Assembly: GCA_050173895.1 (NCBI GenBank)
Contig: JBFXKJ010000001.1
Span: 12,732-76,731 of the forward strand
Length of the DNA stretch: 64,000 bases
Origin: Mangrovibacterium sp.
GTDB taxonomy: Bacteria > Bacteroidota > Bacteroidia > Bacteroidales > Prolixibacteraceae
Direction of reading: 5' to 3'
The first letter of the stretch is position 1. The number at the start of each line of letters is the position of its first letter. Made by a program: the position numbers and the translations under genes. A model generated the notes under the pieces. That model saw nothing but the letters and a program-made list of their open reading frames with translations, ran no database searches and was not told the origin of the DNA. Positions 615 through 51,953 of this stretch are shown one piece after another.

Positions 615-617
615 ATT

Positions 618-1487: not shown

Positions 1488-1494
1488 ACAAAAT

Positions 1495-2508: not shown

Positions 2509-2541
2509 CCGTTTCTGTTAATTAATGTAATCAAACCCACT

Positions 2542-4407: not shown

Positions 4408-4417
4408 CTGTTCGGAT

Positions 4418-5893: not shown

Positions 5894-5904
5894 AAAAAAT
5901 TGCC

Positions 5905-6804: not shown

Positions 6805-6840
6805 GTATTCCTTGTTTAAAAACCAATTATGTACTGAAAA

Positions 6841-12199: not shown

Positions 12200-13648
12200 A
12201 TGAACCGGAAAAAAGACGCAATCCTGGTGTTTAACGGAAGCCTGCTGGCACTGCTGGCTGTCGCTTCCTGCACATCATACGGAAAAACTGCCGGCTCTGA
12301 AGGGAGGCCGAATATTATTCTGATCAATATTGACGATATGGGCTGGAGGGATGTCGGGTTCATGGGATCGGAATATTACGAAACGCCCAACCTCGACAGG
12401 CTGGCCAGGCAGGGAATCATTTTCACCCAGGCTTATGCGGCAGCGGCAAACTGTGCACCCAGCAGGGCATGCCTGATGAGCGGGCAATGGACGCCCCGGC
12501 ACGGCATTTATACAGTCGATTCCTCAGCACGTGGCAAAAGCCGCGACCGCAAACTTATTCCCACGCCGAATAATACGACCCTTCCGGAAGAACAGGTAAC
12601 CCTCGCTGAAGCGCTTCAGGCTGCCGGTTATACAACATGCATTGCAGGGAAATGGCACCTGAGCGACAATCCGCTTAGCCAGGGATTTGATGTCAACATT
12701 GGCGGTTGCCATGCCGGAAGTCCCGGGAGCTACTATCCTCCTTACACCAAGGTACCGTTGGAAGCACCCTCCTCCGATTATTGCCTGACCGATCTGATCA
12801 TGGACAAGACGCTGGAATTTGTGGATTCAGTGAAGAGCCGGCCTTTTTTTCTATACTATTCGCCTTATGCTGTACACACGCCGATTCATCCGGTGAAGAA
12901 ATTGCTGACGAAATATGAGAAAAAACCGGTCTGGAACGGACAGGAAAATGCCGGCTATGCCACGATGGTCGAAAACCTGGATACGCAGGTCGGGAGGTTA
13001 ATTCGCTTGTTGGAAAAGTCGGGGAAACTGGAAAATACCTTTATTCTGTTCACATCGGACAATGGCGGCCATTATGGTATTACCAGGCAGCTGCCCCTGC
13101 GTTCGGGCAAAGGTGCCTATTATGAAGGTGGCATCCGGGAGCCGATGTTTGTTTTCTGGAAAGGAAAAATTAAACCAGGTACCAGGACAGAGGTTCCGGC
13201 GACGAACCTCGATTTTTATCCAACCTTGCTTGATGTGGCGGGAGTGGAAAAGCCTGCCGGCAAATTGCTGGACGGACAAAGCCTGATGCCCGTTTTAACC
13301 GGAACAGGATCATTGGAAGGGCGCCCGCTATTCTGGCATTTCCCGATCTATCTGCAGGCTTATATGAAGAAGGGCGATCCGACGCAGGATCCCTTGTTCC
13401 GGACCCGCCCCGGATCGGCCGTGCGTTTGGGTGACTGGAAGTTAATTCAGTATTTCGAGAACAATGATCTTGAACTATACAATTTGAAGGAAGACATTGG
13501 CGAAAAAAATAACCTGGCAAAATCGAATGCCGAAAAGACCAAAGAGCTTCTGTCGCTGTTGAATGAATGGCGGTCAAAAACCAATGCGCCGGTTCCGGAC
13601 GAACTGAATCCCGGATTCGACCCGCGGCCGGAATCTTCCAGTTGGTAA
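12200..13648 (+). CDS. Cys-type sulfatase (arylsulfatase A family), lipoprotein-like signal
   Basis: The formylglycine motif CAPSRACLMSG is present along with the N-terminal metal-binding motif NIDDMG. The signal is LLAVASCTS. Confidence 0.85.
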   Translation: MNRKKDAILVFNGSLLALLAVASCTSYGKTAGSEGRPNIILINIDDMGWRDVGFMGSEYYETPNLDRLARQGIIFTQAYAAAANCAPSRACLMSGQWTPRHGIYTVDSSARGKSRDRKLIPTPNNTTLPEEQVTLAEALQAAGYTTCIAGKWHLSDNPLSQGFDVNIGGCHAGSPGSYYPPYTKVPLEAPSSDYCLTDLIMDKTLEFVDSVKSRPFFLYYSPYAVHTPIHPVKKLLTKYEKKPVWNGQENAGYATMVENLDTQVGRLIRLLEKSGKLENTFILFTSDNGGHYGITRQLPLRSGKGAYYEGGIREPMFVFWKGKIKPGTRTEVPATNLDFYPTLLDVAGVEKPAGKLLDGQSLMPVLTGTGSLEGRPLFWHFPIYLQAYMKKGDPTQDPLFRTRPGSAVRLGDWKLIQYFENNDLELYNLKEDIGEKNNLAKSNAEKTKELLSLLNEWRSKTNAPVPDELNPGFDPRPESSSW

Positions 13649-13845
13649 GCGTCTAAAGGCGATGACATATAATACGTAGATTGCAGTTGGTTAAATTAAA
13701 AATACAAACATATGAAACGAGCATGGAAGCCGCGGTATCCGCCCGAGCCAATGTTTATAGGCGAGTTCCATACGTCGATGTCCTATAGAAAAGTGATGTA
13801 GTTTAGTACGCAAATTATACACAGCTAATTTGAAATGAAAAACAT

Positions 13846-15963
13846 ATGAAACCCAGTCAAGTGATCATTTCGTCGCTGGCGCTCGGAACGATCTTTAGTT
13901 CCGGTGCTGCAGGAGAGAGCAAACAAACGCAGGTTGCAAAACCGCAACAGCCAAACATCCTTTTTATTTTAGTTGATGATATGGGATATGGCGATCTGGG
14001 TGCTCTGTTTCAAAATCAGCGTGCAAAGGCCAACGATCGAAGCGAACCATGGGAGTTGTCACCTAACCTGGATAAAATGGCTTCCGAAGGTGTTTTGTTG
14101 TCTCAACAATATTGTGCGGCTCCGGTTTGCGCACCCTCACGCGCGTCCCTGTTGCTTGGAGTAAGCCAGGGGCATGCTAACGTCAGAGACAATCAGTTCG
14201 ATAAAGCCCTGGAAAACAACCATACCATTGCTTCTGCCTTGCACGAAATTGGTTATTCAACCGCTGCTTTTGGCAAATGGGGATTGCAGGGCAGTGACCG
14301 CTGGGACGAAAACGGTTCTGAATGGCCGGCGCATCCGCTAAACCGGGGATTTGACTATTTTCTGGGATACATGCGCCATTCGGATGGGCATGAACATTAT
14401 CCCCGGGAAGGCGTGTACCGGGGGAAGAAAGAAGTATGGGAAAACCGGACAAACATTGCGGCCGGCCTGGATAAGTGCTATACGGCCGACTTATGGACGG
14501 CCGCTGCGAAACGTTGGATCGTTCAACATGAGAAGGGACCGGATTCTGAGAAGCCATTCTTCATTTATCTTGCCTTTGACACGCCCCATGCTGTTTTGGA
14601 ATTGCCCACGCAGGCCTATCCCCGGGGTGCAGGCCTTAGGGGAGGAATGCAATGGACCGGGAAAAAAGGAGAGATGATCAGCACGGCATCCGGAACAGTC
14701 GATAGTTGGGTTCATCCTGATTACGCCGGGGCCACCTGGGATGATGACAAGGATCCTTCAACGCCGGAAGTTGCATGGCCGGAAGTATATAAGCGCTATG
14801 CCACCGCAACAAGACGCGTCGACAGTGCTGTGGGCGACATCATGCAATTGTTGAAAGACCTGAATATTGACGACAATACGATCATCGTGTTTACTTCAGA
14901 TAACGGACCTTCCAGAGAATCGTATCTTCCGGAGCAATACCGGCCCAATACGCCCGATTTCTTCAATAGTTTCGGACCCTTTGACGGAATTAAACGCGAC
15001 TGCTGGGAGGGAGGCGTACGAATGCCAGTAATTGCCCGCTGGCCCGGACATATCCGCGCGGGAGAAGAAATCAGATCTGCCAGTGCTTCGTACGACTGGG
15101 CACCTACTTTTCTGGATGCAGCCGGTGTTCCGGCTCCCGCCCGGCTGGACGGTGTCTCCTTGTTGCCATCGCTCACGGGCAAGGGAGATCAGCAGGATCC
15201 TGTCGTTTACGTGGAATATCATGTAGGCGGGAGAACTCCGGCATACGCTGAGTTTGATCCGTCACATCAGGGAAGAAAGCAAAATCAAATGCAAAAGATC
15301 CGAATGGGAAATTTTGTAGGGGTGAGGTACGATATTCAGTCGGCCAATGATGACTTCGAAATTTACGACGTCAGCAAAGATCCGCAGGAAATTAACAACC
15401 TGGCGCGGAACCCCGGAATGGACACCTTGCAGCAATGGATGAAAGCCAAAGTGCTGCAGGTACGCCGGCCCAATTCAACAGCCCCGAGGCCTTATGACCA
15501 TGAAAACATCCCTGCCGTCAGCGCCAGGAAAACGACCGCGGGCATTCACTGGTCAGCCTATGAAGGCGATTTTCCCTGGGTTCCGCAAGTAATCACCCTG
15601 AAACCATCGGCTTCCGGAACAACAGGAAAACCAGATGTTGGTGTCAGCAGGTCAAACGGTAATTTTGCCATGCTTTTCGAGGGGTACCTGAACATTCCTG
15701 AGGACGGGGAATATACTTTTTACCTTACTGCTGGTCATGGCGCACTGATGCGGATTCACGAAGCGACCCTGATCTGTGCCGATTTCGGCTACACTCCAGG
15801 GGAAGAAAAGCAGGCACCGATTAATCTGAAGGCTGGTCTCCATCCTTTCCGGATTTATTATCTGGGGAAAGCCAGCGAAAAACAATCGCTGGAGTTGAAG
15901 TGGAGCGGTCCGGGTATTGAAAAAGAAACTGTTCCGGAAGATGCATTCTGTTATGCGGAATGA
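13846..15963 (+). CDS. Cys-type sulfatase with a C-terminal PA14-like carbohydrate-binding domain
   Basis: Contains VDDMGYGD and CAPSRASLLLG. The C-terminal ~140 aa (YEGDF...GEYTFYL...GLHPFRIYY...LELKWSGPG) resemble a PA14 domain. Confidence 0.8.
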   Translation: MKPSQVIISSLALGTIFSSGAAGESKQTQVAKPQQPNILFILVDDMGYGDLGALFQNQRAKANDRSEPWELSPNLDKMASEGVLLSQQYCAAPVCAPSRASLLLGVSQGHANVRDNQFDKALENNHTIASALHEIGYSTAAFGKWGLQGSDRWDENGSEWPAHPLNRGFDYFLGYMRHSDGHEHYPREGVYRGKKEVWENRTNIAAGLDKCYTADLWTAAAKRWIVQHEKGPDSEKPFFIYLAFDTPHAVLELPTQAYPRGAGLRGGMQWTGKKGEMISTASGTVDSWVHPDYAGATWDDDKDPSTPEVAWPEVYKRYATATRRVDSAVGDIMQLLKDLNIDDNTIIVFTSDNGPSRESYLPEQYRPNTPDFFNSFGPFDGIKRDCWEGGVRMPVIARWPGHIRAGEEIRSASASYDWAPTFLDAAGVPAPARLDGVSLLPSLTGKGDQQDPVVYVEYHVGGRTPAYAEFDPSHQGRKQNQMQKIRMGNFVGVRYDIQSANDDFEIYDVSKDPQEINNLARNPGMDTLQQWMKAKVLQVRRPNSTAPRPYDHENIPAVSARKTTAGIHWSAYEGDFPWVPQVITLKPSASGTTGKPDVGVSRSNGNFAMLFEGYLNIPEDGEYTFYLTAGHGALMRIHEATLICADFGYTPGEEKQAPINLKAGLHPFRIYYLGKASEKQSLELKWSGPGIEKETVPEDAFCYAE

Positions 15964-15983: not shown

Positions 15984-16736
15984 TCATTTAGCTTTTCGTA
16001 ACAAGGCCAGTACCCCGTTTATAAAGGTGAGCGGATGCACCGGGTTGCCGGGTATATACAGGTCGACCGGATATCTGGAGAGAAAGCTGCGGTCGAGCGC
16101 CTCGCTGTCGGCAAAAATACCGCCGCTGATGGCATCGGTACCGGCCAGGATTACCAGCTTCGGATCAGGGACTGCCTGATAGCAGATCTCGAGTGCCCTG
16201 GCCATGTTTACGGTGATAGGACCGGTGATGACGATGCCGTCGGCGTGCCGCGGCGATGCCACAAAATCGATCCCGAACCGGCTCATATCGAACTGGACAT
16301 TGTTTGCGGCATTCAGCTCCCATTCGCAACTGTTGTCGCCGCCCGCCGATACCTGCCGGAGCTTCAGCGAGTGGCCGAACAACCGGTGAATTTCTTTGCG
16401 CACCCGTGCAGCGTCAAGCTTAACCGGTTGCCCGTCGCCTTCAGCAATAATTAATCGGCTTCGGTGGTTCGTCGAAAGTTTATAGTCGGTGGTAAAACGG
16501 ACCTTGTCCGGAAACTGAACAGCACATTCGCCGCAGAAGGTACATTTTCCCAGGTCGATCCGTACGGGACTCACCGCAATAGCCTGAGTCGGGCAAATTT
16601 CAGCCAGTGCTGCTTCATCCACGCTTTCTCTTGAAATGACCGGCCGTCCGCGGAAAATACCCGGCACTTTGGCTGTTGTCACATCAGGAATGAACTGCTT
16701 GCCCTGATGCCATAAGATTTTGATATTGTCGATCAT
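15984..16736 (-). CDS. Ferredoxin-domain / NuoB-HycG-like 'small subunit' fusion with degenerate cluster ligands
   Basis: The N-terminus has ICPTQAI...CTFCGECAVQFP. The C-terminal part is colinear with NuoB/HycG (RFGIDFVASPRHADGIVITGPIT, PDPKLVILAG, PVDLYIPG). Confidence 0.75.
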   Translation of the reverse strand: MIDNIKILWHQGKQFIPDVTTAKVPGIFRGRPVISRESVDEAALAEICPTQAIAVSPVRIDLGKCTFCGECAVQFPDKVRFTTDYKLSTNHRSRLIIAEGDGQPVKLDAARVRKEIHRLFGHSLKLRQVSAGGDNSCEWELNAANNVQFDMSRFGIDFVASPRHADGIVITGPITVNMARALEICYQAVPDPKLVILAGTDAISGGIFADSEALDRSFLSRYPVDLYIPGNPVHPLTFINGVLALLRKAK

Positions 16737-16749
16737 GATGCTTTCAGTT

Positions 16750-18252
16750 TTAGAGGTCGTGCCCGCAGTACGATAAATTAAAGCTTTTGTTGCAGATAGG
16801 GAAGTCGGATATTTCGTTGTTCCTGACTGCCTGGGCCAGCGCCATCCAGTTGTGATGCGAAGGATCCTTGATCTTATAAACGATCAGATCGCCTTGCTGA
16901 CCGGTGACCGCACAATGGCAGATTTCGCCCCGCCAGCCTTCCACCAGCGAAAGCGTAAAAGTCTCCTTGCCGGGCGAAAGACTGAAATTTTCAGGTTTTT
17001 TAAATTCCGGTATGTCGCTGATCAGCTTGCGGGCATAACCAATCGACTGCAGGATTTCTTCTTTTCTGATCTGCGCCCGGGAATACACGTCGCCGTGATG
17101 CTTGATCACCGGCGAATGATTAATTGCAATGCCATACAGGTCGTGCGGATGCGACAAGCGGATGTCGCGGTTCAGGCCGCTCATCCGGGCGGCCATCCCC
17201 ACCGTGCCGATCCCGCAAACCTGCTCATAGCTGACCACTCCGGTCTTCTCCATTCGTGACAGCGCGCTGGGCAGCTTAAAGAGTTTCCTGCTCATCTCGG
17301 TAAAGTCAGCTTCGTAGGTCTCCAGCACGGTATTCAGCCTTGCCGCGAGTTCGGCAGAAAAAGGATAATTGATCTTTCCGGCCCTGATCAATCCTTTCGA
17401 CAACCGGTTGCCACCCCATTCCTGCATGAAATTGATGATCGGCGTACGCAGCCGCCCAAAGACGGCATTGCCTAACTGATAGGCAATATCGGCGCAAATA
17501 GCCGAAAGGTCGCCTGTATGGATGGCAATACGTTCCAGTTCGAGGGCCAGGGTGCGGGCAAATTTCAGTGACCGGTCAGGTTCGTACCCGCAGAGGCTTT
17601 CCCACAGGTTTACAAAGGCTGTGGTATGTCCAACAGTGGTGTCGCCGGCAATGTTTTCAGCCAGGGTAGTGCGTTCCAAAAGCTTTTTCTTTTGCAGGAA
17701 CAGCTGTTCGATGCCCCGGTGCTGATAACCTAACTGGATCTCCAGATGCATGATCTGCTCCCCGTTGCAGATGAAGCGGAAATGTCCCGGCTCGATCACT
17801 CCCGCGTGGATCGGACCCACGCCGACTTCATGGAGTTCTTCGCTTTCGGCCCGGCAGAACGGATAATTTTCCGCCTTTTCGGCCGTGTCAGCCCTGTTTT
17901 GCGCATACCGCACCGGTTTTAACCAGGGATGGTCGCTGTACAGAATCCCGAAGTTTTCATGAATCTCCCGTTCGAATTTTTCAAAATTCGTGTTTTGGGC
18001 CGTCAGGGAGGCCAGGGTAGTCCTGGCATCAACAACAGTGGAAGAGATCAGGATTTCATGCCGGAGATCATCGGCGATACAACAAATGAGCCTGATCCGG
18101 CCGGCGTCGCTGTAACCGAAATAGTTCACGCAATGTCTCTCCGGACCGCTTTTCATCAGGTCAAGATTGGCTTCCATGAACAGCCGGTAGGGATGTTCGG
18201 GAATATCCTTTAAGGCAATCGGCTGATTATTATGAATGGGAATATACAACAT
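16750..18252 (-). CDS. Fused NuoC-NuoD / HycE-like 'large subunit' lacking the N-terminal [NiFe] CxxC
   Basis: FEREIHENFGI marks the NuoC-like part. GPIHAGVIEPGHFRF...LGYQHRGIEQL is the group 4 hydrogenase/NuoD signature. The L1 position reads ENIAGDTTVGH and the C-terminus reads NLSYCGHDL. Confidence 0.8.
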   Translation of the reverse strand: MLYIPIHNNQPIALKDIPEHPYRLFMEANLDLMKSGPERHCVNYFGYSDAGRIRLICCIADDLRHEILISSTVVDARTTLASLTAQNTNFEKFEREIHENFGILYSDHPWLKPVRYAQNRADTAEKAENYPFCRAESEELHEVGVGPIHAGVIEPGHFRFICNGEQIMHLEIQLGYQHRGIEQLFLQKKKLLERTTLAENIAGDTTVGHTTAFVNLWESLCGYEPDRSLKFARTLALELERIAIHTGDLSAICADIAYQLGNAVFGRLRTPIINFMQEWGGNRLSKGLIRAGKINYPFSAELAARLNTVLETYEADFTEMSRKLFKLPSALSRMEKTGVVSYEQVCGIGTVGMAARMSGLNRDIRLSHPHDLYGIAINHSPVIKHHGDVYSRAQIRKEEILQSIGYARKLISDIPEFKKPENFSLSPGKETFTLSLVEGWRGEICHCAVTGQQGDLIVYKIKDPSHHNWMALAQAVRNNEISDFPICNKSFNLSYCGHDL

Positions 18253-18256
18253 GGCA

Positions 18257-19684
18257 TCAGGATATAAGTTTTACGGCATCCTGCAGCAGGGTCACCAGCA
18301 GGGCAGGAGGGGCATAAGCCAGATAAACGGCAACGATCAACAGCAGGTACTGGGGCAGCGATTCCCATGCTTTTATTGCCGGCAGTTGTTTCTCGTCGAT
18401 ATGAATGGGGGGAATAAACAGCAACCTGAAAATATTGGAGCCAAATCCCCAGATGATCATCGTGAGCAGGATCAGCACCAGAGCGAGAATGAGGATATTA
18501 TGTGCTTCGAACAAAGACTGGAAGATCATGAATTCACTGACAAACAAGCCTGAAGGCGGCATGGCAGTCGCAGAGAAAAATCCCAGCAGCAAAACGAGGG
18601 CCCCGGCTTTGTTGTATTTAAAATAACTACCCATATCATAGATGCTTTTACTCTGGTACACCCGGTAAACCTGGTTAAACTGGAAGAAAAGGCTGGGTTT
18701 CACAAACGAGTGGAGCACCACATGAAGAATGGCCGCATAAACGCCCACACCCCCGCAGGCAAGTCCCAGAACAACAAGTCCCATATGCTCGATCCCCGAA
18801 TAGGCAAGCATGCGCTTGATATTTTTAATGCGGGTCATGTATACCGTGGCTACAAAGACCGACAGCACCGCAGCGAATAGCATGACCGTACCGGCCCATT
18901 TCAATAAAGGCGTATGGGAGAAGACAGCGTAAAAACGAAATACCCCGATAAATCCCATGTTCATCAGCACACTGGCCAAAAGCGCGCCTGCGGGTGCCGG
19001 CGCTTTGTCTTTGGCATCAATTCCTGCTGTATACATCGGAACAAGTCCCAGTTTTGCAGTGAAACCGGTAAAGATGAACAGAAAAGCGAGCTTCAGCCAA
19101 AAAGGATTTAACTGTGAGGCATGAGCATATAAGGTATCGAACGACAAATCATTAATTCCGGCCTGTTTCACGGCGAGACTCAGGAAAAGAATGCCGATGT
19201 AAATGAAAGTAATGCTGATGGCGCAGATGAAAACATATTTCCAGGCACCTTCGAGCGCACGGATGTTCCGGTGGTGGTAAATCAATGCGGAGGCGCTCAG
19301 GGTGGTGATCTCGGCAAAGATCCAGATCACCGCAATGTGATTGGAAATATAAGCCATCGAACAAGCCGAAATCAGCATCACCATGGCCGCAAAAAACAAA
19401 CCTCTCGATTTGGGAGTTTCATCGTGCAGCGCGATATACCGGTACCCGTGCCAGAAGGCAGGAATACTGACCGCGCTGATGGTCAGGAGCATGAGCACGC
19501 CCAGGGAATCGGGTTTGAAAAATCCGAACTGCGTATGATTCAGATCATTCAGCTCATTGATGCTGAAAAACCATAATAAAGCGAGGTAGATGACCAGAAG
19601 TAAATAGTTGACAGCCGTATTCCGGTTGAAGAACAATCCTCCGCCAATGATCAGGGTCCCTATCAAAAATATACTGACAATCAT
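18257..19684 (-). CDS. NuoM/N- or HyfF-like antiporter-type membrane subunit (divergent)
   Basis: 475 aa polytopic membrane protein colinear with the proton-conducting transporter family (PF00361-like). It starts 4 nt after the upstream gene. Confidence 0.7.
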   Translation of the reverse strand: MIVSIFLIGTLIIGGGLFFNRNTAVNYLLLVIYLALLWFFSINELNDLNHTQFGFFKPDSLGVLMLLTISAVSIPAFWHGYRYIALHDETPKSRGLFFAAMVMLISACSMAYISNHIAVIWIFAEITTLSASALIYHHRNIRALEGAWKYVFICAISITFIYIGILFLSLAVKQAGINDLSFDTLYAHASQLNPFWLKLAFLFIFTGFTAKLGLVPMYTAGIDAKDKAPAPAGALLASVLMNMGFIGVFRFYAVFSHTPLLKWAGTVMLFAAVLSVFVATVYMTRIKNIKRMLAYSGIEHMGLVVLGLACGGVGVYAAILHVVLHSFVKPSLFFQFNQVYRVYQSKSIYDMGSYFKYNKAGALVLLLGFFSATAMPPSGLFVSEFMIFQSLFEAHNILILALVLILLTMIIWGFGSNIFRLLFIPPIHIDEKQLPAIKAWESLPQYLLLIVAVYLAYAPPALLVTLLQDAVKLIS

Positions 19685-19688
19685 TTTT

Positions 19689-20318
19689 TTAGTCTTTCAG
19701 GTTGCGTAACAGGTTAACGTCCGGGTTTTTCAGCACATCGCCGATCTTGTTGAAGAACACGCCAAGGATGAGCACGCTGGCAAAAATATCGAGCATGATG
19801 CCCAGGTTTACCAGCATCGGCATTTCATTCCCCACCGCGAGCGATAAAATAAATACGCCGTTTTCGATGAACAGGTAGCCGATTACGTGGGTAATGATTT
19901 TCTTGCGCGATATGATCAGGTATAAGCCGGTGAAAAGCGTCGACAGGGCCACCACAAAGTACGTTTTATCCAGGTTTTCTTCTCCGATTGCATGCGAAAG
20001 GATGATGGTAGCCACGAAAATCAGCGATACGATGATCAGCGACAGGAAGTTGGGCAGGTAGGGCTCCGCTTCGCGGGTGATTTCATTTCGCCGGATTACA
20101 TAATTGATGAACCAGGGAACAGCAATGGCTTTAAAACCAATTGTTTCAAGCAAAATGAGTGTCAGGTTGACATGATTCACTTCAGTAAGGGTCAGATACG
20201 TCACGCCGAAAAGGATAAATCCCTGAAACACCAGGATCCGCAGATAGGTCAGCAGCCGGTTGGCGATGCTGACATAGAGCAGCGACATGGAAAGTGCGAT
20301 GAGGAGTATATCGGTCAT
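19689..20318 (-). CDS. HyfE-like small membrane subunit
   Basis: About 209 aa and roughly 7 TM segments. I prefer the ATG at 20318 (MTDILLIAL...) because it lies 1 nt after the upstream TGA (20320-20322), whereas the track start at 20354 overlaps the upstream gene. Confidence 0.6.
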   Translation of the reverse strand: MTDILLIALSMSLLYVSIANRLLTYLRILVFQGFILFGVTYLTLTEVNHVNLTLILLETIGFKAIAVPWFINYVIRRNEITREAEPYLPNFLSLIIVSLIFVATIILSHAIGEENLDKTYFVVALSTLFTGLYLIISRKKIITHVIGYLFIENGVFILSLAVGNEMPMLVNLGIMLDIFASVLILGVFFNKIGDVLKNPDVNLLRNLKD

Positions 20319-20319
20319 A

Positions 20320-21225
20320 TCAAATAAATTTTCCCATAACAAGCAATACGCCAAAGAATATCAGCGAGGCTACCGAGGTCAGGATAAAAATGAACTGCGG
20401 GTTATGTCCGAGCCTGAAACGAGCCATAAACGATTCGATCACTCCGACAGCAACTGCAAAGCCTGCCTGAACGCCAAAGAACACGGGGATTGAAAAAAGA
20501 TAAGGCATCGACCCGATAAAAAAGTTGGAAATGATGGCACCGTACAAGGCAAATTTCAGGTACGAAGTGTAGGTGATCAGTCCCAGATCGAATCCGCTGT
20601 TGTCCAAAACCATCACTTCATGGATCATCGTCAGTTCCAGGTGGGTTTTGGGGTCATCGACCGGCATTCGGCTGTTCTCGATCATTGCGATAAAAATGAA
20701 AACGAAGGCTGCAAGTGCTCCCAACATGTACGAAACCGACGAACCATAGTGAAGCGCGCTGAAGATGCCATGGAAGGACGTTTGTCCGGTGAAAAGGGCG
20801 AACGATCCCATCAGGACGAAGAAGGCAGGCTCGGCCAGCATCGAATACAGGGCTTCCCGGGCCGCGCCCATTCCTTCAAAACTGCTTCCGGTATCGAGGG
20901 CGGAAACGATCATCAGAAATTTGCCCATGGCCAGTGTATAGGCAAACAGGACAAAGTCACCATCGAATGAAATCAGCCCGGGATGATTCCCGTGGGGAAC
21001 CATCAACACAGCCATCAGTACCGACGACAGGTACACGCTGGGGGCGATTTGAAAGATCAGGCTGGTTGTATGGCTGTACACGGAATCTTTTTTCCACAGT
21101 CGCACCACATCTTTCATCGGCTGAAAGATCCCGGGCCCTTTGCGCCCGGAAGTGAAGCTTTTGGTCCGGATTACGATCCCGGTAAAAAACAAGCTTGTTA
21201 TAAGAATAAGGATGAAACTGACCAT
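20320..21225 (-). CDS. NuoH/HycD-like membrane subunit
   Basis: 301 aa polytopic protein. The N-terminal pattern GPGIFQPMKDVVRLWKK is colinear with the QP.AD..KL motif of the NuoH/HycD family. Confidence 0.7.
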   Translation of the reverse strand: MVSFILILITSLFFTGIVIRTKSFTSGRKGPGIFQPMKDVVRLWKKDSVYSHTTSLIFQIAPSVYLSSVLMAVLMVPHGNHPGLISFDGDFVLFAYTLAMGKFLMIVSALDTGSSFEGMGAAREALYSMLAEPAFFVLMGSFALFTGQTSFHGIFSALHYGSSVSYMLGALAAFVFIFIAMIENSRMPVDDPKTHLELTMIHEVMVLDNSGFDLGLITYTSYLKFALYGAIISNFFIGSMPYLFSIPVFFGVQAGFAVAVGVIESFMARFRLGHNPQFIFILTSVASLIFFGVLLVMGKFI

Positions 21226-21227
21226 AG

Positions 21228-23285
21228 CTACAGGTGGTTTAAGAATTCGATCAGGATCCTGATTTTGCTGGCGACAAGCGGCAGCAAGACCGCGGCACTG
21301 ATAAAAATGAAGCCGTATAAAATGTAAGCCTGGATGTTGCCGTTCTGAAGAAATCCAAACCGCCGCAGGAATTTCCTCGATAATTGCACAGGCTTATCAA
21401 TGAGCAGGATTTCGATCCAGTCGCCCGGATGTGTTTCCTGCTCGATCCGGTCCGGGTAAAGGCCGGCGGCGTCTTTCTTGTGTTTTTTGATGAACAGCAC
21501 CGGTTCGGCCAGTTTGCGGTAGGTCCGGATGAAGGAGGAGGCCGTATATTGCATTTTTGCGGTGTCTCCGGTATAGCCACAGCCCCAGGTTGGGCTGGCG
21601 TTCTGCCGGCGTTGGCTGACAAGCCGGGTCCGCAGCAGGTAGATCACGGAACTGAGCGCCACGAACCCCAGGGAATACCAGCCTACCTGCATCAGGGTTC
21701 CAAGCAGTTCATGTATTTGGAGATATGATTCGGTCGTGGCCGCCGGCAGGTATAAAGCAACTGTTTTTGCCAGTGGTATCGCCAGGATGAAGGGGAATAA
21801 TCCGATTGCAACAATGGCCGCTGCAATCAGGTATAAGGGCAGCACATTCCCCCCTCTTCCGGCCTCAGGTCTCCGGTCTCCCTCTTCCGGTTTTCTGTCT
21901 CCGGTTTCCTGTCTCTGCCCCCCGAGAAATACGATTCCGAATGCTTTTGTGAAGCAGATCAGCGCCAGTCCTCCGATAAGCACCAGGGCAAGGATTGAAA
22001 ACAACATGGCCAGGATAAACAGGAACCGTTCGGACGAAAGGCCTTTGAACAGCCCGCTGTAAATAAAGAATTCGGAAACGAAGCCGTTGAAAGGAGGCAG
22101 TCCGCAGATGGCGAGCGAGCCAATCAGAAAGAGAGCTGCCGTATGGGGGATCCGTTTGATCAGTCCGCCCAGCGCTTCAATGTTGAGGGTATGCCGGATC
22201 AGGTAGACATTTCCGGCACCGAAAAACAGGAGCGACTTGAAAAGCGAATGGTTTAGCGTGTGGAGCAGGGCCCCGCCAAATCCGGCCACGGCCAGTGTAT
22301 TCGATTCATATCCCAGGCCGAGGCAACCCAGGCCGATGCCGATGCCAATAATGCCAATATTTTCGATGCTGTGATAAGCCAGCAGCTTTTTGAGGTTGTG
22401 CTGGACGATGGCCAACATCACACCATAGACCCCTGTCACGACCGAAAATGCCAGCACCAGATAGCCGATGGTGACCATGTCGGTTTTGATCAGCATCAGC
22501 ATTCTCAGAATCCCGTAAATGCCGATTTTAATGATCACGCCCGACATGATCCCGGAAATATGGGCCGGGGCAGCAGGGTGGGCCAGGGGCAGCCAGGTAT
22601 GGAAGGGTACAAATCCGGCTTTGATCCCGAAGCCAAAAAAGAACAGGGCGAATAAACCTATTCCCGCCAGAGTGGGCTGGATAGCGCTGAATTTCGTGAT
22701 TGCAGTGAAGTCGAACGAGCCGGTTTTGATCTTCACCCACAGAAAGGCGATGGTGAGAAGAAGGATGCCAATATGTGACTGGATCAGGTAGTTCAAGCCC
22801 GCTTTCATCGTTTCCTTTTTATAGTGCTCAAAAATGACCACAATGAAAGATGATAAGGCCATGATTTCCCACAGAACCAGCAGCATCAGGCTGTTCTGAA
22901 TCGTGCACAGATCGACGAGAGAAGTGAAAAGCAACAGGAATGCAATCAGGTGCATGGTGATGTTGTCGGCCTGGTCGCGGTATGCCTGCATATACCTGAA
23001 GCCATACCAGCCGCCGGTGAAGAAGGTAAAGCTGATCATCAGGATGAACCACGCGGAGAGGGAATCAATCCGTACGGGAATTTCTCCGGTGACCATTGAG
23101 CCAGGATAAACGATTTCCAGCGGACCGCTTGTAAAAACGGATAACGACAACATAATGCCGATAAAGGCGAGCATACCGGTGACACCCAGTGTCAGGATGC
23201 CCCTTCCTTTGGTCGTTAAAAAAGGAATACAGAGAATGGTAAGAATTGCAAGCAGGTTGAACAGTTCAAGCAGCAACTTATTCAT
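21228..23285 (-). CDS. NuoL/HyfB-like antiporter-type membrane subunit
   Basis: Has the canonical motif FVPFHTWLPLAHPAAPAHISG and a HyfB-like C-terminal segment (TWGCGY...QYTASSF). The ATG at 23285 (MNKLLLELF) is preferred because the track start at 23369 is a TTG inside the putative promoter. Confidence 0.75.
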   Translation of the reverse strand: MNKLLLELFNLLAILTILCIPFLTTKGRGILTLGVTGMLAFIGIMLSLSVFTSGPLEIVYPGSMVTGEIPVRIDSLSAWFILMISFTFFTGGWYGFRYMQAYRDQADNITMHLIAFLLLFTSLVDLCTIQNSLMLLVLWEIMALSSFIVVIFEHYKKETMKAGLNYLIQSHIGILLLTIAFLWVKIKTGSFDFTAITKFSAIQPTLAGIGLFALFFFGFGIKAGFVPFHTWLPLAHPAAPAHISGIMSGVIIKIGIYGILRMLMLIKTDMVTIGYLVLAFSVVTGVYGVMLAIVQHNLKKLLAYHSIENIGIIGIGIGLGCLGLGYESNTLAVAGFGGALLHTLNHSLFKSLLFFGAGNVYLIRHTLNIEALGGLIKRIPHTAALFLIGSLAICGLPPFNGFVSEFFIYSGLFKGLSSERFLFILAMLFSILALVLIGGLALICFTKAFGIVFLGGQRQETGDRKPEEGDRRPEAGRGGNVLPLYLIAAAIVAIGLFPFILAIPLAKTVALYLPAATTESYLQIHELLGTLMQVGWYSLGFVALSSVIYLLRTRLVSQRRQNASPTWGCGYTGDTAKMQYTASSFIRTYRKLAEPVLFIKKHKKDAAGLYPDRIEQETHPGDWIEILLIDKPVQLSRKFLRRFGFLQNGNIQAYILYGFIFISAAVLLPLVASKIRILIEFLNHL

Positions 23286-23358
23286 GATCAATTTGTTAGT
23301 TTGTCCGGTGAAATGGAAATAACTTTCAACCCGGTACGGATGACAGTTATTTCGCGAG

Positions 23359-23366
23359 CAAAAGTA
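23359..23366 (-). promoter_or_regulatory. Candidate Bacteroidota -7 promoter element (TACTTTTG matches TAnnTTTG) for the six-gene operon
   Basis: Motif read on the minus strand about 75 nt upstream of the ATG at 23285. This is a single motif match only. Confidence 0.3.
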
Positions 23367-23478
23367 CAAAAAATGCAGGATGCGATTTCTAATTTGCGTC
23401 CTGAATTGTTGTGATCATAAAAATTAAGGAGTTGTCAATTCCCGGCTGATCCCCTGCAGACCCACATTTATCGGGATG

Positions 23479-24255
23479 CTATTCCCTGGCCAGTTCAATC
23501 CAGACGGGAGCATGGTCGCTCGATTTTTCCCATCCTCTCACTTCGCGGTCAACTCCGGCCGCCTGGAGGCGGTTGCTGATTGACGGACTGAGCAAAAAGT
23601 GGTCAATACGCAGGCCGGCATCGCGGCCGTAGGAATTGCGGAAATAATCCCAGAAAGTGTAGATACGCTGATCCGGATATATTTTTCGGATGGCATCGGT
23701 CCAGCCCTGACCGACCAGGTTTTTGTAGGCCAGGCGCACTTCGGGCAGAAAGAGTGCATCTTTTACCCAGCTTTCCGGCTTGTACACGTCCATTTCGGTC
23801 GGGATCACGTTAAAATCGCCGGTCATCACAGCCGGAATTCCTGAAGCGATGAGGCCTGCCGCATGTTCAGTCAGCCGCTGGAACCACCGCAGCTTGTATT
23901 CGAATTTGGGGCCGGGGGCAGGATTACCGTTGGGCAGGTACAGGCAGCAAATGAGGATCCCGTTGATGGTGGCTTCGATATACCGGCTGTTCACGTCGTC
24001 CGGATCGCCTGGGAGGAGGCGTCTGACTTCGGCCGGTTCCTGTCCCTTCGATAAAATGGCAACCCCGTTCCAGCTTTTCTGTCCGTGCCACAGGGCATGG
24101 TATCCCGCTTCGCGAATGGCTTCAAGCGGAAATTTTTCCTGTGGCGCCTTCAGTTCCTGTAAACACACCACCTCGGGCGATGTTTCACTGAGCCATCGCA
24201 ACAACACGGGCAGCCGCCCGTTTACCCCGTTCACGTTATAGGTTGCGATCTTCAT
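23479..24255 (-). CDS. xth: Exodeoxyribonuclease III (AP endonuclease)
   Basis: The MKIATYNVNG...VCLQELK N-terminus and the C-terminal SDHAPV motif support the call. The ATG at 24255 is preferred over the track start at 24402, which would overlap ftcD. Confidence 0.85.
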   Translation of the reverse strand: MKIATYNVNGVNGRLPVLLRWLSETSPEVVCLQELKAPQEKFPLEAIREAGYHALWHGQKSWNGVAILSKGQEPAEVRRLLPGDPDDVNSRYIEATINGILICCLYLPNGNPAPGPKFEYKLRWFQRLTEHAAGLIASGIPAVMTGDFNVIPTEMDVYKPESWVKDALFLPEVRLAYKNLVGQGWTDAIRKIYPDQRIYTFWDYFRNSYGRDAGLRIDHFLLSPSISNRLQAAGVDREVRGWEKSSDHAPVWIELARE

Positions 24256-24301
24256 AGACAAAATTTTCCTGTTAAGGTACGATAATTCTGCAGGCCGGGG
24301 G

Positions 24302-26008
24302 TCATATCCCGATTTTTTTGCCGACGATTTGCAGGATTTCCGTTTCAAGGGCAATGGCTTTTTTCTCCAGGTCATGGGCTTCTTTAAGAACCGCTGAAAC
24401 AAATACCTTGTCTTTCAGTCCCCCGGCGTTAATCTTAACGTTCAGGGCAGCCCCGAGAACGGCCGAGCGGGCGGCAAGCGCGCCGACGCCGGCATCGGAA
24501 ACCGAGTTCGGATTACCCTGTTCGGCCATGGCTTTGATCAGCTCCATCGATTGAAAGCTGAACTGCATCACCTTCAGGGGAACGCCGATGGCCTGGCGGG
24601 TTGCCGACTGGATCGCTTCTTCCCGCTGCGCCTTTTCTTCTTCGCTTGCTTTCGGCATTTTGAAGGCTGCCATCAGCGTGTTGAAGGCCTCCGTATCCTG
24701 ACTGGTGAGCAGCAGAAGCCGATCGTGAATGGCTTTCCCTTTTTCGGCCCAGGCGGCAAATTCCTCCCAACGGCTGTCCCATCCTTTTTTATGGGACGAC
24801 AAGTTAGCGACCATGGTTCCCAGGGCCGCACCCAGCGCTCCCATGCAGGCAGAAACGGAGCCGCCGCCGGGGGCCGGCGATTCGGAAGCAGTTTCTTCAA
24901 CGAATTTTTTAACACTCAGTTCTGTCAGTTTCTTCTGACCGGCTTCTTCGATCAGGTATTCAATGATCCTTTTTTGCGGGTCGAAGGGAGCCAGATCATC
25001 CAGTCCCATTGATTTTATGGCAATTTTCAGGAGCTCCTCGTCGGCAACCCCGGCCGAGCGTTTTTGCTTGTGCAGGAAGTATCTTCCGGCTTCGAGTATG
25101 GGTTGCAGCGGGATCAGACCGATCAGTTCGGAACCGGTTACCCGGATCCCCCGTACGGCGGCCCGTTCACAGGCTGCCTCAAATACCTGGTGAACAGAGG
25201 TGACGGTGATGTCGGTGATGTTGAACGACAACTGGGCGATGCCGTATTCCTCGATATACCAGCCGATGCCTTTTACCCCTTTCAGCATGCCGGGTTCATA
25301 AACCGGATTGCCGGCTTCATCGGTTAATAGCTTTCCGGTAAGCGGATCACCCTCCCGTTTCAGTCGTCCTTTTTCGCGGATGTCGAAGGCAACGGCGTTG
25401 GCCAGCCGGGTTGAAGTGGTGTTCAGGTTCACGTTGTAAGCTACCAGGAAGTTCCGTGCGCTGAGCGCTGTCGCACCGGTGCGGGCTACGGCGGCATTGA
25501 ATTCGGCCGGGCCGAAGTCGGGTTTCCAGAGCGGGTCGGGCAACTTCCGGCACAGCCCTTCGTATTCTCCGGCGCGGCAGTTCGCCAGGTTCTTCCGGAT
25601 TTCAGAAGTGGCCGTATTCTCATATAAGTATATCGGGATCCCCAGTTCTTCGCCAATCCGCTTCCCCAGCAGATTGGCATATCCGATCGTTTCTTCCATG
25701 GTAATTCCGGTCACCGGGATCAGGGGCAGCACGTCGGTGGCTCCGAAACGGGGGTGCTTTCCCCTGTGCCGGCGCATATCGATCAGTTCGGCGGCTTTTT
25801 TCACTGCCCGGAAGGCTGCTTCACAAACCTCTTCCGGCTCGCCGACAAAGGTCATGACCGTTCGGTTGGTCGCTTTGCCGGGGTCGACGTTCAGCAGTTT
25901 GACACCGTCGACCGAGCGGATCGCTTCGGCGATCTGGCTGATGGTATTCAGATTATTCCCCTCGCTGAAGTTAGGGACGCATTCGATGATCCTTTGCATG
26001 CTGTTCAT
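24302..26008 (-). CDS. ftcD: Bifunctional glutamate formimidoyltransferase / formimidoyltetrahydrofolate cyclodeaminase
   Basis: 568 aa. The N-terminus IECVPNFSEG is typical of formiminotransferase and the C-terminal ~200 aa form a helical cyclodeaminase-like domain. It sits downstream of hutHUI. Confidence 0.85.
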   Translation of the reverse strand: MNSMQRIIECVPNFSEGNNLNTISQIAEAIRSVDGVKLLNVDPGKATNRTVMTFVGEPEEVCEAAFRAVKKAAELIDMRRHRGKHPRFGATDVLPLIPVTGITMEETIGYANLLGKRIGEELGIPIYLYENTATSEIRKNLANCRAGEYEGLCRKLPDPLWKPDFGPAEFNAAVARTGATALSARNFLVAYNVNLNTTSTRLANAVAFDIREKGRLKREGDPLTGKLLTDEAGNPVYEPGMLKGVKGIGWYIEEYGIAQLSFNITDITVTSVHQVFEAACERAAVRGIRVTGSELIGLIPLQPILEAGRYFLHKQKRSAGVADEELLKIAIKSMGLDDLAPFDPQKRIIEYLIEEAGQKKLTELSVKKFVEETASESPAPGGGSVSACMGALGAALGTMVANLSSHKKGWDSRWEEFAAWAEKGKAIHDRLLLLTSQDTEAFNTLMAAFKMPKASEEEKAQREEAIQSATRQAIGVPLKVMQFSFQSMELIKAMAEQGNPNSVSDAGVGALAARSAVLGAALNVKINAGGLKDKVFVSAVLKEAHDLEKKAIALETEILQIVGKKIGI

Positions 26009-26044
26009 TTTTTTCCCTGCCGCGGACAGTTTTCATTCCTGCCC

Positions 26045-27328
26045 TCAGTCATTCTCCTGTATTTCAAAAAAACGATCGCAGTTTGATTCCTTGATTACTC
26101 TCTTATACGCACATCTCCCGTTTTTCCATACCCGTTCTACCGGCAGATAGCCCTGATGATAAAGGATATCCTGGTAATTGTCCGTTTTGAACACCATGAT
26201 ATCGGCCAGCTTACCTGTTTCCAGGCTTCCCCGGTCGTTCAGGTTTAAAGCCAGTGCGGCTCTGCAGGTCAGTGCTGCCCAGGTTTCGGCCATGGTCAGC
26301 TTTTGTGCTGCCCCCAGAATAGCGGCCTGGATCAGCAGGTTTCCCATGGGTGCGGAACCCGGATTCCAGTCGGACGCGATGACCAGCGAAGTTCCGGCGT
26401 CAAGCAGCCGGCGCGCCGGAGCAAAAGGCAATCCCAGTCCCATCGAAGCACCCGGCAGTACCACAGGAATGGTATTGCCGCCTGCTAAAACGGCAATTTC
26501 CCGATCGTCGGCGGCTTCCAGGTGATCGATGCTGAGGGCGCCGGTTTCGGTGGCCAGTTGTGCGGCACCGGCCGTGAACTGGTCGCCGTGCACGATCCGG
26601 TCGAAGCCCATATCGCGAACCTTGAACAGAAACTCCCTCGCCGCCGGCAGGGAGAATGCTCCGCTGTCGACAAAAATATCGACCCGCCGTGAAAGTCCTT
26701 TTTTTAAAACGACAGGCAGCAGTTCATTCAGGATGTGGTCCAGGTATTTGACTTCGTCTCCTTCGAAATCTTTTGGCAGCATGTGAGCGGCCAGACAGGT
26801 CGGGATCAGATCGGCCTTCGACTTTTTCGCGGCTTCGGCAATGGCTTGCAGGATCTTTAGTTCCTGATCAACCGCCAGGCCATAGCCACTCTTTACTTCG
26901 ATGGTGGTGATTCCCTGTTCGAGCAACTGGCGGGCGTGCACAGCCGTAACAGCGGCAAGTTCCTGCATGGGTTTCTGACGGGTCTGTCCAACCGTGTTCC
27001 AGATTCCGCCGCCGGCTGCATTGATCGCCCTGTAATTTGCGCCCGACAAGCGCAGGGCGTATTCCTCAGCCCTTGTACCTGCCCAGCAAATATGCGTGTG
27101 TACGTCGATCATTCCCGGCAGGGCCACATAGTCTTCATTCAGGAATTCGATGGTTTTTGGATTGCTTTCGGCTTCCAGCTTGTGGAAATCATCGACAGCC
27201 TCGATTTTTCCGTCGAGCACAAGAATACCCTGGTTTGACCGGATCTCCAGCCGGTCGTCTGACAGAGGTCCGCGGGCGGGCAGTTCGGCCATCGTCAGGA
27301 GTTGTTTGAATGGGCCTATTAGTTTCAT
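26045..27328 (-). CDS. hutI: Imidazolonepropionase
   Basis: An amidohydrolase with the DVHTH metal motif. The position between hutU and ftcD fits. Confidence 0.85.
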   Translation of the reverse strand: MKLIGPFKQLLTMAELPARGPLSDDRLEIRSNQGILVLDGKIEAVDDFHKLEAESNPKTIEFLNEDYVALPGMIDVHTHICWAGTRAEEYALRLSGANYRAINAAGGGIWNTVGQTRQKPMQELAAVTAVHARQLLEQGITTIEVKSGYGLAVDQELKILQAIAEAAKKSKADLIPTCLAAHMLPKDFEGDEVKYLDHILNELLPVVLKKGLSRRVDIFVDSGAFSLPAAREFLFKVRDMGFDRIVHGDQFTAGAAQLATETGALSIDHLEAADDREIAVLAGGNTIPVVLPGASMGLGLPFAPARRLLDAGTSLVIASDWNPGSAPMGNLLIQAAILGAAQKLTMAETWAALTCRAALALNLNDRGSLETGKLADIMVFKTDNYQDILYHQGYLPVERVWKNGRCAYKRVIKESNCDRFFEIQEND

Positions 27329-27341
27329 AATTAACAGTTAA

Positions 27342-27392
27342 GAATCAAGAATCAAGAGCCAAGAATCAAGACATAAAAACCAGGAATCAAGA
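27342..27392. repeat. Four copies of GAATCAAGA within 51 nt (UCUUGAUUC on the hut mRNA strand)
   Basis: Copies lie at 27342-27350, 27349-27357, 27363-27371 and 27384-27392. They are in the hutU-hutI intergenic spacer, ending 13 nt before the hutI ATG. Confidence 0.8.
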
Positions 27393-27443
27393 CGCATCGC
27401 GTCCCGGCGACTTCGCGTTTAAATCTATTTCCCTTGAATTGTC

Positions 27444-30687: not shown

Positions 30688-30834
30688 TCGCGTTTTTTTC
30701 AAAAGAATTAAGGTCACTCTGTCCCGTGCAAGGTAAACTAATTTCCCGGGACAAAAAATGACAAAAAGAATGGTTTCAATTGCCTGCATAGGCGTCATGC
30801 GATGCAGAAGCGCAGGGGAAAGAGTTAACCGGAT

Positions 30835-35437: not shown

Positions 35438-35585
35438 TCTTGCATACTTGTTGTTTTAGAGCCGTTGAGTCTCAATATCTTCATTTCCGAGTATGGGATC
35501 AAATCGGTAAACTACTTTTTTTACCAACCTCATTTGGTTAAAGCATTGTAAACCAATTAGCCCTTTCATGACTTACTCCTGAATA

Positions 35586-37877: not shown

Positions 37878-37882
37878 AGCTT

Positions 37883-39265: not shown

Positions 39266-39306
39266 ATAAAAGATATTGGTTGCCAAAGTTGCTGTTTGTC
39301 GATGTT

Positions 39307-40758: not shown

Positions 40759-40776
40759 AACAGTGGTTTTATATTA

Positions 40777-44088: not shown

Positions 44089-44256
44089 ATTTTTGTTTTG
44101 ATATGGTTTGAAAAATGGTCAAAAATGTTTTTTTGACGTTTTTTGAATCGCGGGCAGGGAAATGCGCGACCATTTTCCTGCTTTTTTGGTTTGGTTTGTC
44201 TCTTTTTTATATCATAGGCAATTTATTTAGATTCAGATTCGCTTTATTGGTGACAT

Positions 44257-51951: not shown

Positions 51952-51953
51952 CC

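Follow-up and report, generated by a model that had tools for sequence, protein, structure and literature searches.

The 64,000-nucleotide (nt) stretch of Mangrovibacterium sp. DNA analyzed here, called the window below (assembly GCA_050173895.1, contig JBFXKJ010000001.1, positions 12,732 to 76,731), carries a six-gene operon for a membrane complex of the energy-converting hydrogenase-related (Ehr) type. The six co-directional open reading frames (ORFs) lie head-to-tail on the minus strand, to which all coordinates of the operon refer, and occupy positions 15984-23285 with corrected starts. The first gene, ehrA (21228-23285), encodes an antiporter-like subunit related to HyfB, HycC and NuoL, of 685 amino acids (aa) from ATG 23285. 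It is followed by ehrB (20320-21225, 301 aa), encoding a NuoH/HycD-like subunit, by ehrC (19689-20318, 209 aa from ATG 20318), encoding a small HyfE-like membrane subunit, and by ehrD (18257-19684, 475 aa), encoding a second antiporter-like subunit related to HyfF, NuoN and MbhH. The last two genes encode the peripheral arm. ehrL (16750-18252, 500 aa) specifies a large subunit in which NuoC is fused to a NuoD/HycE-like domain without [NiFe] ligands, and ehrS (15984-16736, 250 aa) a small subunit in which a HycF/NuoI remnant is fused to a NuoB/HycG-like domain. The close packing described in the original prediction is confirmed, the gaps being 2, 1, 4, 4 and 13 nt after start-codon correction. 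The upstream limit had to be revised. The prediction took the operon to 23369, where a TTG opens a 713-aa ORF. Because orthologs measure about 675 aa and this TTG lies inside a terminator- or promoter-like stretch, the longer ORF is most likely over-extended and ehrA most likely starts at ATG 23285. The ehrC start at ATG 20318 matches ortholog lengths of 209-210 aa.

Families were assigned with Pfam and NCBIfam profiles, using the curated NCBIfam cutoffs, and by sequence matches to the Protein Data Bank (PDB). EhrA matches Pfam Proton_antipo_M (4e-50) and, as its best PDB hit, HycC (7Z0S_C, 2e-57); it scores 495 bits against the NCBIfam HyfB profile, whose cutoff is 667. EhrB matches NADHdh (4e-32), with HycD (7Z0S_D, 3e-19) as best PDB hit. 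EhrC is matched over its full length by NCBIfam HyfE (PRK11492, 2e-16) and weakly by Oxidored_q2, the NuoK family. EhrD matches Proton_antipo_M (7e-41) as well as MbsH and MbhH in the PDB. EhrL contains Complex1_30kDa and Complex1_49kDa and is closest to HycE (7Z0S_E, 4e-34). In EhrS, Oxidored_q6 (9e-21) is accompanied by a weak Fer4 match and by weaker matches to NuoI (1e-5) and HycF (6e-5) in NCBIfam; its PDB matches are MbhJ (2e-24) and HycG (3e-20). An AlphaFold2 model of EhrS (pTM 0.78) retrieved HycG, PSST and MbhJ as top Foldseek matches, thus solely the expected HycG, NuoB and MbhJ folds, and the search was uninformative for the N-terminal domain. The subunit order proposed from the sequence, from HyfB/NuoL-like through HycD/NuoH-, HyfE-, HyfF/NuoM-N- and NuoC-NuoD/HycE-like to NuoB/HycG-like, agrees with these Pfam and NCBIfam assignments. 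None of the six subunits reached a named NCBIfam equivalog or subfamily cutoff, those of Hyf, Hyc and Nuo included. Database entries for such genes read 'Ni,Fe-hydrogenase III' or 'NADH dehydrogenase'.

EhrL has lost the [NiFe] site. When EhrL is aligned with HycE (7Z0S_E), 'iAgdTtvgH' falls opposite the L1 motif 'vCgiCgfaH' and 'nlSyCg' opposite the L2 motif 'dpCysC'. In the L1 remnant (aa 202-209, AGDTTVGH, 17626-17649), also aligned with MbhL and Nqo4, the first two cysteines are replaced by Ala202 and Thr205, and a new aspartate, Asp204, stands between them. In the L2 remnant (aa 492-500, NLSYCGHDL, 16753-16779), Ser494 and Gly497 occupy the positions of the third and fourth cysteines. The original prediction had reported the loss of the N-terminal pair and of at least one C-terminal cysteine; the alignment extends this to all four canonical positions (A202, T205, S494, G497). 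Cys496 is one position out of register and varies between Cys, Ser and Ala across the family.

In an exhaustive HMMER search EhrL had 4291 relatives, from which 105 full-length, mutually diverse Ehr-type large subunits were aligned and compared with the three nearest true hydrogenases. The 105 sequences share a signature in which [A/S/C]-G-D-[T/S] stands for C-G-x-C and L-S-Y-x-G-x-D for L-C-Y-x-C-x-D. Asp204 is conserved in 93% of them, the L2 serine in 95% and the L2 glycine in 98%. True hydrogenases with all four cysteines are interspersed within the Ehr radiation; their L2 motif reads LCY[SA]CTD[RL], and one such four-cysteine cluster near EhrL is named from Planctomycetota. The three nearest ones have valine or alanine at the position of Asp204. 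Nearly every residue conserved in these three is also conserved in Ehr, save the four cysteines and Asp204. The hydrogenase active-site shell is otherwise retained, including the proton-shuttle Glu154 in GPxHAGxIEPGHFRF.

Conservation within the clade was assessed in 80 Bacteroidota loci (L001-L080), residue counts varying with the subunit. The NuoB/HycG-like domain of EhrS (15987-16394) was aligned with MbhJ, HycG and PSST. The four cysteine positions of the proximal cluster, the N2 cluster of complex I, are occupied by Asp134, Cys137, Asp201 and Asn231, so that three of the four ligands are replaced, as the original prediction had it for most of them. These residues are themselves conserved among orthologs (D134 in 73/73, C137 in 69/73, D201 in 72/73 and N231 in 73/73). 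With all four [NiFe] cysteines and three of the four proximal ones replaced, the locus should not encode a working hydrogenase, in line with the earlier view, and we infer that the complex can neither make nor consume H2.

A single [4Fe-4S] site is left in EhrS. The HycF/NuoI-derived ferredoxin-like domain (16437-16679) was aligned with HycF (7Z0S_F), NdhI and MbsN. Of the first HycF motif, the first three cysteines are gone and the cysteine of 'CP' is kept as Cys48. Of the second, CxxCxxC is kept as Cys65, Cys68 and Cys71, and the fourth cysteine has become Phe75. Read against the usual ligation pattern of 2x[4Fe-4S] ferredoxins, the kept cysteines make up exactly one complete cluster motif. 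Cys48, Cys65, Cys68 and Cys71 are conserved in 72-73 of 73 orthologs and in distant clades. The surviving cluster may be the counterpart of N6b of Thermus Nqo9, the cluster that adjoins N2. The earlier statement that a separate HycF/NuoI gene is missing holds for a stand-alone gene; a homolog is present as this one-cluster remnant fused to EhrS. The AlphaFold2 model has a predicted local confidence (pLDDT) of 83-95 over residues 30-110 and below 50 over the former cluster loop 133-162, which may reflect absent partner subunits or an absent cofactor.

The membrane arm is intact and constrained as an ion-translocating scaffold. In EhrA and its paralog A', described below, the glutamate of transmembrane helix (TM) 5, the lysines of TM7 and TM8, the His-His-Lys of TM11 and the glutamate of TM12 are invariant (100/100 sequences). 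EhrD has E125, K211, H321, H325, K329 and E384 without exception (72/72). Of 15 conserved charged or polar residues tested in EhrB, among them those of the TM5-6 loop PVDDPKTHLELTMIHE, 13 are invariant in 59/59 orthologs and the other two are found in 58/59. The position of the central-axis lysine in TM8 of EhrD is Asn242 in 66/72 orthologs and is a lysine in only 7/44 distant Ehr sequences.

Strong purifying selection acts on all six genes. Relative to L081, a 90%-identical locus of the same genus, the ratio of nonsynonymous to synonymous substitution rates (dN/dS) is 0.12 for ehrA, 0.05 for ehrB, 0.06 for ehrC, 0.05 for ehrD, 0.06 for ehrL and 0.08 for ehrS. The 80 loci are syntenic, with intact reading frames in nearly all of them and near-constant subunit lengths (EhrB 301, EhrC 209-210, EhrD about 475, EhrL 499-502 and EhrS 249-253 aa). 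The nearest named relative is a Mangrovibacterium metagenome-assembled genome. Identity is 65-96% across many Bacteroidota families, and more than 120 database clusters are 71-96% identical to EhrL. Relatives are encoded in at least 592 species-level genomes, almost all of Bacteroidota, including Prolixibacteraceae, Lentimicrobiaceae, Paludibacter, Rikenellaceae, Muribaculaceae, Salinivirgaceae, Chitinophagaceae and Cyclobacteriaceae. Two of the observations that the original prediction had itself named as telling against it do not hold: a decaying operon, which the dN/dS values of 0.05-0.12 and the intact gene lengths in 80 loci refute, and intact L1 and L2 cysteine pairs with four NuoB-type cysteines, neither of which the alignments show.

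To place the loss of the proximal cluster, large-subunit type was paired with small-subunit ligands in 80 distant metagenome loci, which gave 50 Ehr-type pairs. Many contigs of distant representatives were too short to reach the small subunit. All four proximal-cluster cysteines are kept in the small subunits paired with 45 of these 50 large subunits. They are also kept in the nearest outgroups (L083, L167 and the first of the two operons in L092, L101 and L129), and L083 and L167 keep both ferredoxin motifs too. The alignments thus indicate that the loss is derived and specific to a subclade, and not a general Ehr trait. L092, L101 and L129 each carry two tandem Ehr operons, one with a large subunit of the type found in the window (AGDT...LSYCGFDL) and one of the ISGDS...LSYSGTDR type, and the small subunits of both keep the proximal-cluster cysteines.

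The ligand positions read D-C-D-N in the window clade (73 orthologs), DADN in L082, DTDN in L168 and DVEA in the Rikenellaceae-type L166. A second group without these ligands, L161, L163 and L165, has an unfused small-subunit gene upstream of ehrA and reads SCDD, DCEN and DCDN, respectively. In a neighbor-joining tree this group is nested among clades that keep N2; the tree is crude (BLOSUM distances, midpoint root), and two independent losses are probable. Both N2-less clades have Ser or Asp at the first position, Asp or Glu at the third and Asn or Asp at the fourth, with alanine at the fourth in L166, a more distant member of the window's lineage. The leftover Cys137 is dispensable, being replaced in L082, L168 and L166, while Asp recurs at the first position and Asp or Glu at the third. 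Outside the ligand positions, EhrS of N2-less and N2-keeping clades differs in some polar substitutions and at residue 216, where an invariant arginine in the N2-less clades stands against glycine in the N2-keeping ones; this arginine was gained in the window's lineage. That the two apparently independent losses converge on carboxylate or amide residues, together with the invariant Arg216, argues for replacements kept by selection, which could form a salt-bridge plug or a cation- or proton-binding site. A comparison of EhrL between N2-less and N2-keeping clades gave no obviously functional correlated change. EhrB Glu117 and Asp191 were considered as correlates of N2 loss and rejected: they are specific to the Bacteroidota clade and do not occur in the second N2-less clade.

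The operon of the window is also a short form. In 49 of 54 informative Bacteroidota loci, a second HyfB-like gene, A' (about 668 aa, 46% identical to EhrA; for example L001:2956-4956), lies upstream of ehrA. A single EhrA is found in the window, in its close relative L081 and in the distant clades represented by L166, L167 and L168. A tblastn search of the window found no remnant of a second ehrA or of the Crp-family gene described below. The full four-subunit membrane arm claimed in the original prediction is thus there with its four subunits, but most related loci have a fifth.

Very probably, then, the operon encodes a functional non-hydrogenase of the Ehr type, a grouping that relies on shared motifs and on a neighbor-joining tree of unlabeled sequences. 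The large subunit is of group 4 type, with the hydrogenase fold kept and the [NiFe] cysteines gone. The operon of HyfB-, NuoH-, HyfE- and HyfF-like subunits with NuoC-NuoD and NuoI-NuoB fusions corresponds to the published six-subunit Ehr layout (PMC6349859, Supplementary Note 4) and to the Geobacter sulfurreducens list EhrA-1/A-2/B/C/D/L/S, GSU0739-45 (PMC7894505). The Ehr class proposed from the sequence is therefore borne out by both the 105-member signature and the published architecture. Ehr also occurs in Margulisbacteria, Nitrospira and the candidate phyla radiation (PMC6349859, PMC10284858, PMC7304191). Its function is called unknown (PMC10284858; PMC7894505), so that the earlier remark on an unestablished role stands, and no functional or structural work on Ehr came up in a literature search. 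Neither the class nor its architecture is new; the variant that combines a missing N2 cluster with one remaining cluster and one EhrA was not found described in the literature searched, which did not cover Coppi 2005 and Marreiros 2013. The class itself has reportedly been known since those two papers.

Compared with published Ehr systems from Geobacter and others, the window has the same gene set and order and likewise lacks the [NiFe] cysteines, with function unknown in those systems as well. It differs in having one EhrA, where Geobacter and 49/54 close relatives have two, and in its Asp/Cys/Asp/Asn proximal positions, where 45/50 other sampled small subunits keep four cysteines. The complex of the window has a single Fe-S site in total.

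Of the related systems, the Escherichia coli Hyf (hydrogenase-4) and Hyc (formate hydrogenlyase) complexes (PDB 7Z0S; groups 4a/4f) supply the best PDB matches for EhrA, EhrB and EhrL and the second-best for EhrS after MbhJ. The gene order is like that of Hyf, and there is identity with the nearest true hydrogenases in the GPxHAGxIEPGHFRF motif and most of the active-site shell. The Ehr complex descends from energy-converting [NiFe] hydrogenases of the Hyf, group 4f-like type. Unlike Hyf and Hyc, the complex of the window lacks the [NiFe] ligands and the proximal cluster, and HycF has shrunk to a one-cluster domain fused to EhrS. No HycB/HyfA, FdhF, HycI or Hyp genes accompany it, and the corresponding NCBIfam equivalog scores are under cutoff. 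None of the group 4 hallmarks, namely CxxC in L1, CxxC in L2 and four proximal-cluster cysteines, is present.

Pyrococcus furiosus MBS/MBX (PDB 6U8Y) is a parallel case, being derived from group 4 with H2 chemistry abandoned, and its subunits are detectable homologs. MBS reportedly contains three [4Fe-4S] clusters, of which the proximal one is catalytic. The window's complex has one complete motif in place of such a three-cluster chain, and it lacks genes like MrpE, MrpF and MrpG, whereas MBS has a Mrp-type Na+ module. Complex I (Nuo/Nqo) shares homologs of NuoB, NuoC, NuoD, NuoH, partly NuoI, a NuoK-like subunit and NuoL/M/N, and the charged residues of the antiporter-like subunits are conserved. 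However, the N2 ligands are lost and the quinone-ligating Tyr87 of Nqo4 aligns with Gly203. The position of His38 falls in the loop 'HAGVIEPGH' with no histidine aligned. NuoA, NuoJ, NuoE, NuoF and NuoG are missing, and NCBIfam Nuo scores are under cutoff. As for the Mrp antiporter (PDB 7QRU, 6Z16), EhrA and EhrD match MrpA and MrpD. We use this as a functional analogy only, and claim no membership: Mrp comprises MrpA-G and has neither a NuoH-like subunit nor a peripheral arm, and Ehr has only MrpA/D-like and NuoK-like homologs, without MrpB, MrpE, MrpF or MrpG.

Hyp, hycI, nickel-transport and formate dehydrogenase (FDH) families are absent from the non-overlapped ORFs of at least 100 aa in the window, in agreement with what had been read from the sequence. 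No oxidoreductase, ferredoxin, FDH or NuoEF neighbor recurs in the 80 Bacteroidota loci, and no FDH, NuoE/F or other oxidoreductase lies beside the operon in L081, L166, L167 or L168. The sole recurrent non-housekeeping neighbor is a divergently transcribed Crp-family regulator in 15/80 loci (for example L001:1983-2699). This protein of about 238 aa combines cNMP_binding and HTH_Crp_2 domains, with no Fnr-type N-terminal cysteine cluster evident, and it is not present in the window. Other recurrent neighbors, read from translations, are housekeeping genes (ribosomal L13, S9 and S2, EF-Ts and an RNase Y-like protein). In L166 (9436-10514) and L168 (12396-13462), two ChrA-like (Chromate_transp) genes follow the Rikenellaceae-type Ehr operon on the same strand.

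Upstream of ehrA and on the same strand, the window carries genes for HutH, HutU, an imidazolonepropionase-like amidohydrolase and a formiminotransferase-cyclodeaminase (24302-30798, minus strand), with an Exo_endo_phos phosphatase (23479-24402, minus strand) between this hut set and ehrA. A functional link of the operon to the upstream hut and phosphatase genes or to the downstream sulfatases was considered and rejected: the arrangement is kept solely in the same-genus L081. In L065, too, HutH and HutU lie no more than about 6 kb from the operon. As the hut genes are absent from loci other than L081 and L065, their adjacency is probably a coincidence. A pattern search located a hairpin with a 10-bp stem followed by a T-run between the phosphatase gene and ehrA (23376-23403, minus strand). 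It resembles a terminator that would insulate the operon from the hut and phosphatase genes, as a consensus-type match only, the count of terminator-type hairpins in the region not exceeding the shuffled expectation. The Bacteroidetes -7 promoter consensus is TAnnTTTG, and a candidate match, TACTTTTG, was read at 23359-23366 (minus strand), 74 nt upstream of ATG 23285. Since the hairpin and T-run are followed by this match, the ehr operon is probably a transcription unit of its own.

The rest of the window is of mixed content. An inositol-catabolism-like run (9-7851, plus strand) holds a class II aldolase, KduI/IolB, a PfkB kinase, a thiamine pyrophosphate enzyme and an aldehyde dehydrogenase, together with a xylose-isomerase-like TIM barrel and a GFO/IDH/MocA oxidoreductase. 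Several sulfatases, one of them with a PA14 domain, and a block resembling a polysaccharide-utilization locus occupy 12200-15963 (plus strand), 33620-48290 and 58968-60611. The block includes a fucosidase, GH92, SusD, a SusC-like TonB receptor carrying an STN domain, an anti-sigma factor of the FecR type and an extracytoplasmic function sigma factor. Such genes are typical of Bacteroidota polysaccharide utilization. An arsenic-resistance-like set (48518-51963) comprises a DsrE-like protein, a weak match to the CDF family, an ACR3/SBF transporter, an ArsM-like SAM-dependent methyltransferase and an ArsC-like low-molecular-weight phosphatase.

How might such a complex work? Homologous structures show the proximal cluster as the link from the HycF clusters to the active site, so its loss would break the only known electron path to the coupling site. 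By this analogy, the canonical cluster chain should no longer be able to wire electrons to the junction of EhrL, EhrS and EhrB. The remaining cluster, judged from the same structures, would lie more than about 20 Å from the former active site. If no canonical electron wire exists, ion translocation without through-arm electron transfer is favored. Our preferred reading, held tentatively and with somewhat less than even confidence, is that the complex is a redox-independent, at most redox-gated, translocator of H+ and/or Na+. EhrA and EhrD would be its antiporter-like modules, the NuoH-like EhrB and the HyfE-like EhrC would connect them, and EhrL and EhrS would form a peripheral cap. In function it would then resemble a secondary antiporter of the Mrp type, or a gated path for ions, more than a respiratory pump. 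The hydrogenase-derived arm would probably survive as a cap or gate of the NuoH/E-channel entrance. There, Asp204 of EhrL, Asp134, Asp201, Asn231 and Arg216 of EhrS, and Glu154 could form a proton- or cation-binding site or a salt-bridge plug, and the lone cluster could be structural or act as a redox sensor. The conservation of the replacement residues D134, D201 and N231 in 72-73 of 73 orthologs, which is not random, supports a translocator of this kind.

Several points weigh against it. The single [4Fe-4S] site is invariant, which would most simply mean that it still has a redox role. Most other Ehr complexes (45/50, plus L083 and L167) keep a two- or three-cluster chain, and the Ehr family as a whole probably does redox chemistry. 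The clade might still be redox-active through a partner encoded elsewhere, and in Geobacter, Ehr subunits reach their highest abundance on formate (PMC7894505). Finally, the distance between cluster and active site is itself an estimate carried over from homologous structures.

The main alternative is a redox pump with a shortened wire. Electrons would pass from reduced ferredoxin or flavodoxin to the EhrS cluster and on to a soluble or membrane acceptor bound nearby, somewhat as in Pyrococcus MBS, whose catalytic site is an Fe-S cluster and not NiFe, and the resulting redox or protonation change would be transmitted to the membrane arm. Invariant cluster ligands, a domain descended from the electron-input subunit HycF/NuoI, sister Ehr clades with two to three clusters, and the retained Glu154 and active-site shell are all consistent with this idea. 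Yet the proximal cluster at the EhrL/EhrS/EhrB junction is gone in 73/73 orthologs, and the distance left is probably too great for electron transfer. Moreover, no candidate acceptor-binding motif was found, and genes for a donor or an acceptor are not conserved near the operon. We regard such a pump as possible, if unlikely.

A partner encoded elsewhere, such as an FDH or a NuoEF-like module, could instead dock onto the complex and supply both clusters and catalytic site. FDH-Ehr complexes have been proposed from gene proximity in Margulisbacteria and Saganbacteria (PMC6349859), and the peak of Geobacter Ehr subunits on formate (PMC7894505) points the same way. In the 80 Bacteroidota loci, as in L081, L166, L167 and L168, no FDH, NuoE/F or other oxidoreductase recurs, however, and an external partner cannot substitute for a proximal cluster that is internal to the NuoB fold. 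Docking of this kind thus appears distinctly improbable for the clade.

That the operon is a relic of evolution, a hydrogenase operon in decay or no longer expressed, as the lost catalytic ligands and the absence of maturation genes from the window might suggest, is effectively excluded. The dN/dS values in all six genes, the frames and lengths preserved in nearly all 80 loci, the 65-96% identity across Bacteroidota families and the invariance of the replacement residues themselves all speak against decay. A working hydrogenase with non-canonical metal ligation has next to no likelihood: the overall fold and active-site shell are conserved and the off-register C496 lies near the site, but the four cysteine positions are Ala, Thr, Ser and Gly, C496 varies between Cys, Ser and Ala, the proximal cluster is missing, the window holds no hyp or endopeptidase genes, and we know of no NiFe hydrogenase without the four cysteines.

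Within the preferred reading of an ion translocator without through-arm electron transfer, a more specific version would be a redox-gated, and not redox-driven, machine in which the lone [4Fe-4S] cluster serves as sensor and the carboxylate and amide residues Asp134, Asp201 and Asn231 of EhrS and Asp204 of EhrL, with the retained proton-shuttle glutamate, form a new control site for protons or cations at the pumping junction. This version is, in our estimate, quite unlikely in all its parts. If true, it would give the first member of the complex I/group 4 hydrogenase superfamily with a complete peripheral arm and no through-arm electron transfer.

Ehr complexes are widespread and have been put forward as a possible bridge from membrane-bound hydrogenases to complex I. 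A complete and constrained membrane arm, one Fe-S cluster and acidic residues at former metal sites narrow the hypotheses: in this subclade, an ordinary chain of clusters leading to the coupling site is ruled out. Should the function prove ordinary, for example that of a pH or salt antiporter, the value of the finding would lie mainly in correcting annotations. Several genera of the clade have cultured species (Mangrovibacterium, Draconibacterium, Paludibacter, Labilibaculum and Mariniphaga), so that genetics and biochemistry are feasible. As a naturally occurring, 'redox-dead' counterpart to the coupling junction of complex I, the complex could reveal the mechanical role of the peripheral arm in ion translocation.

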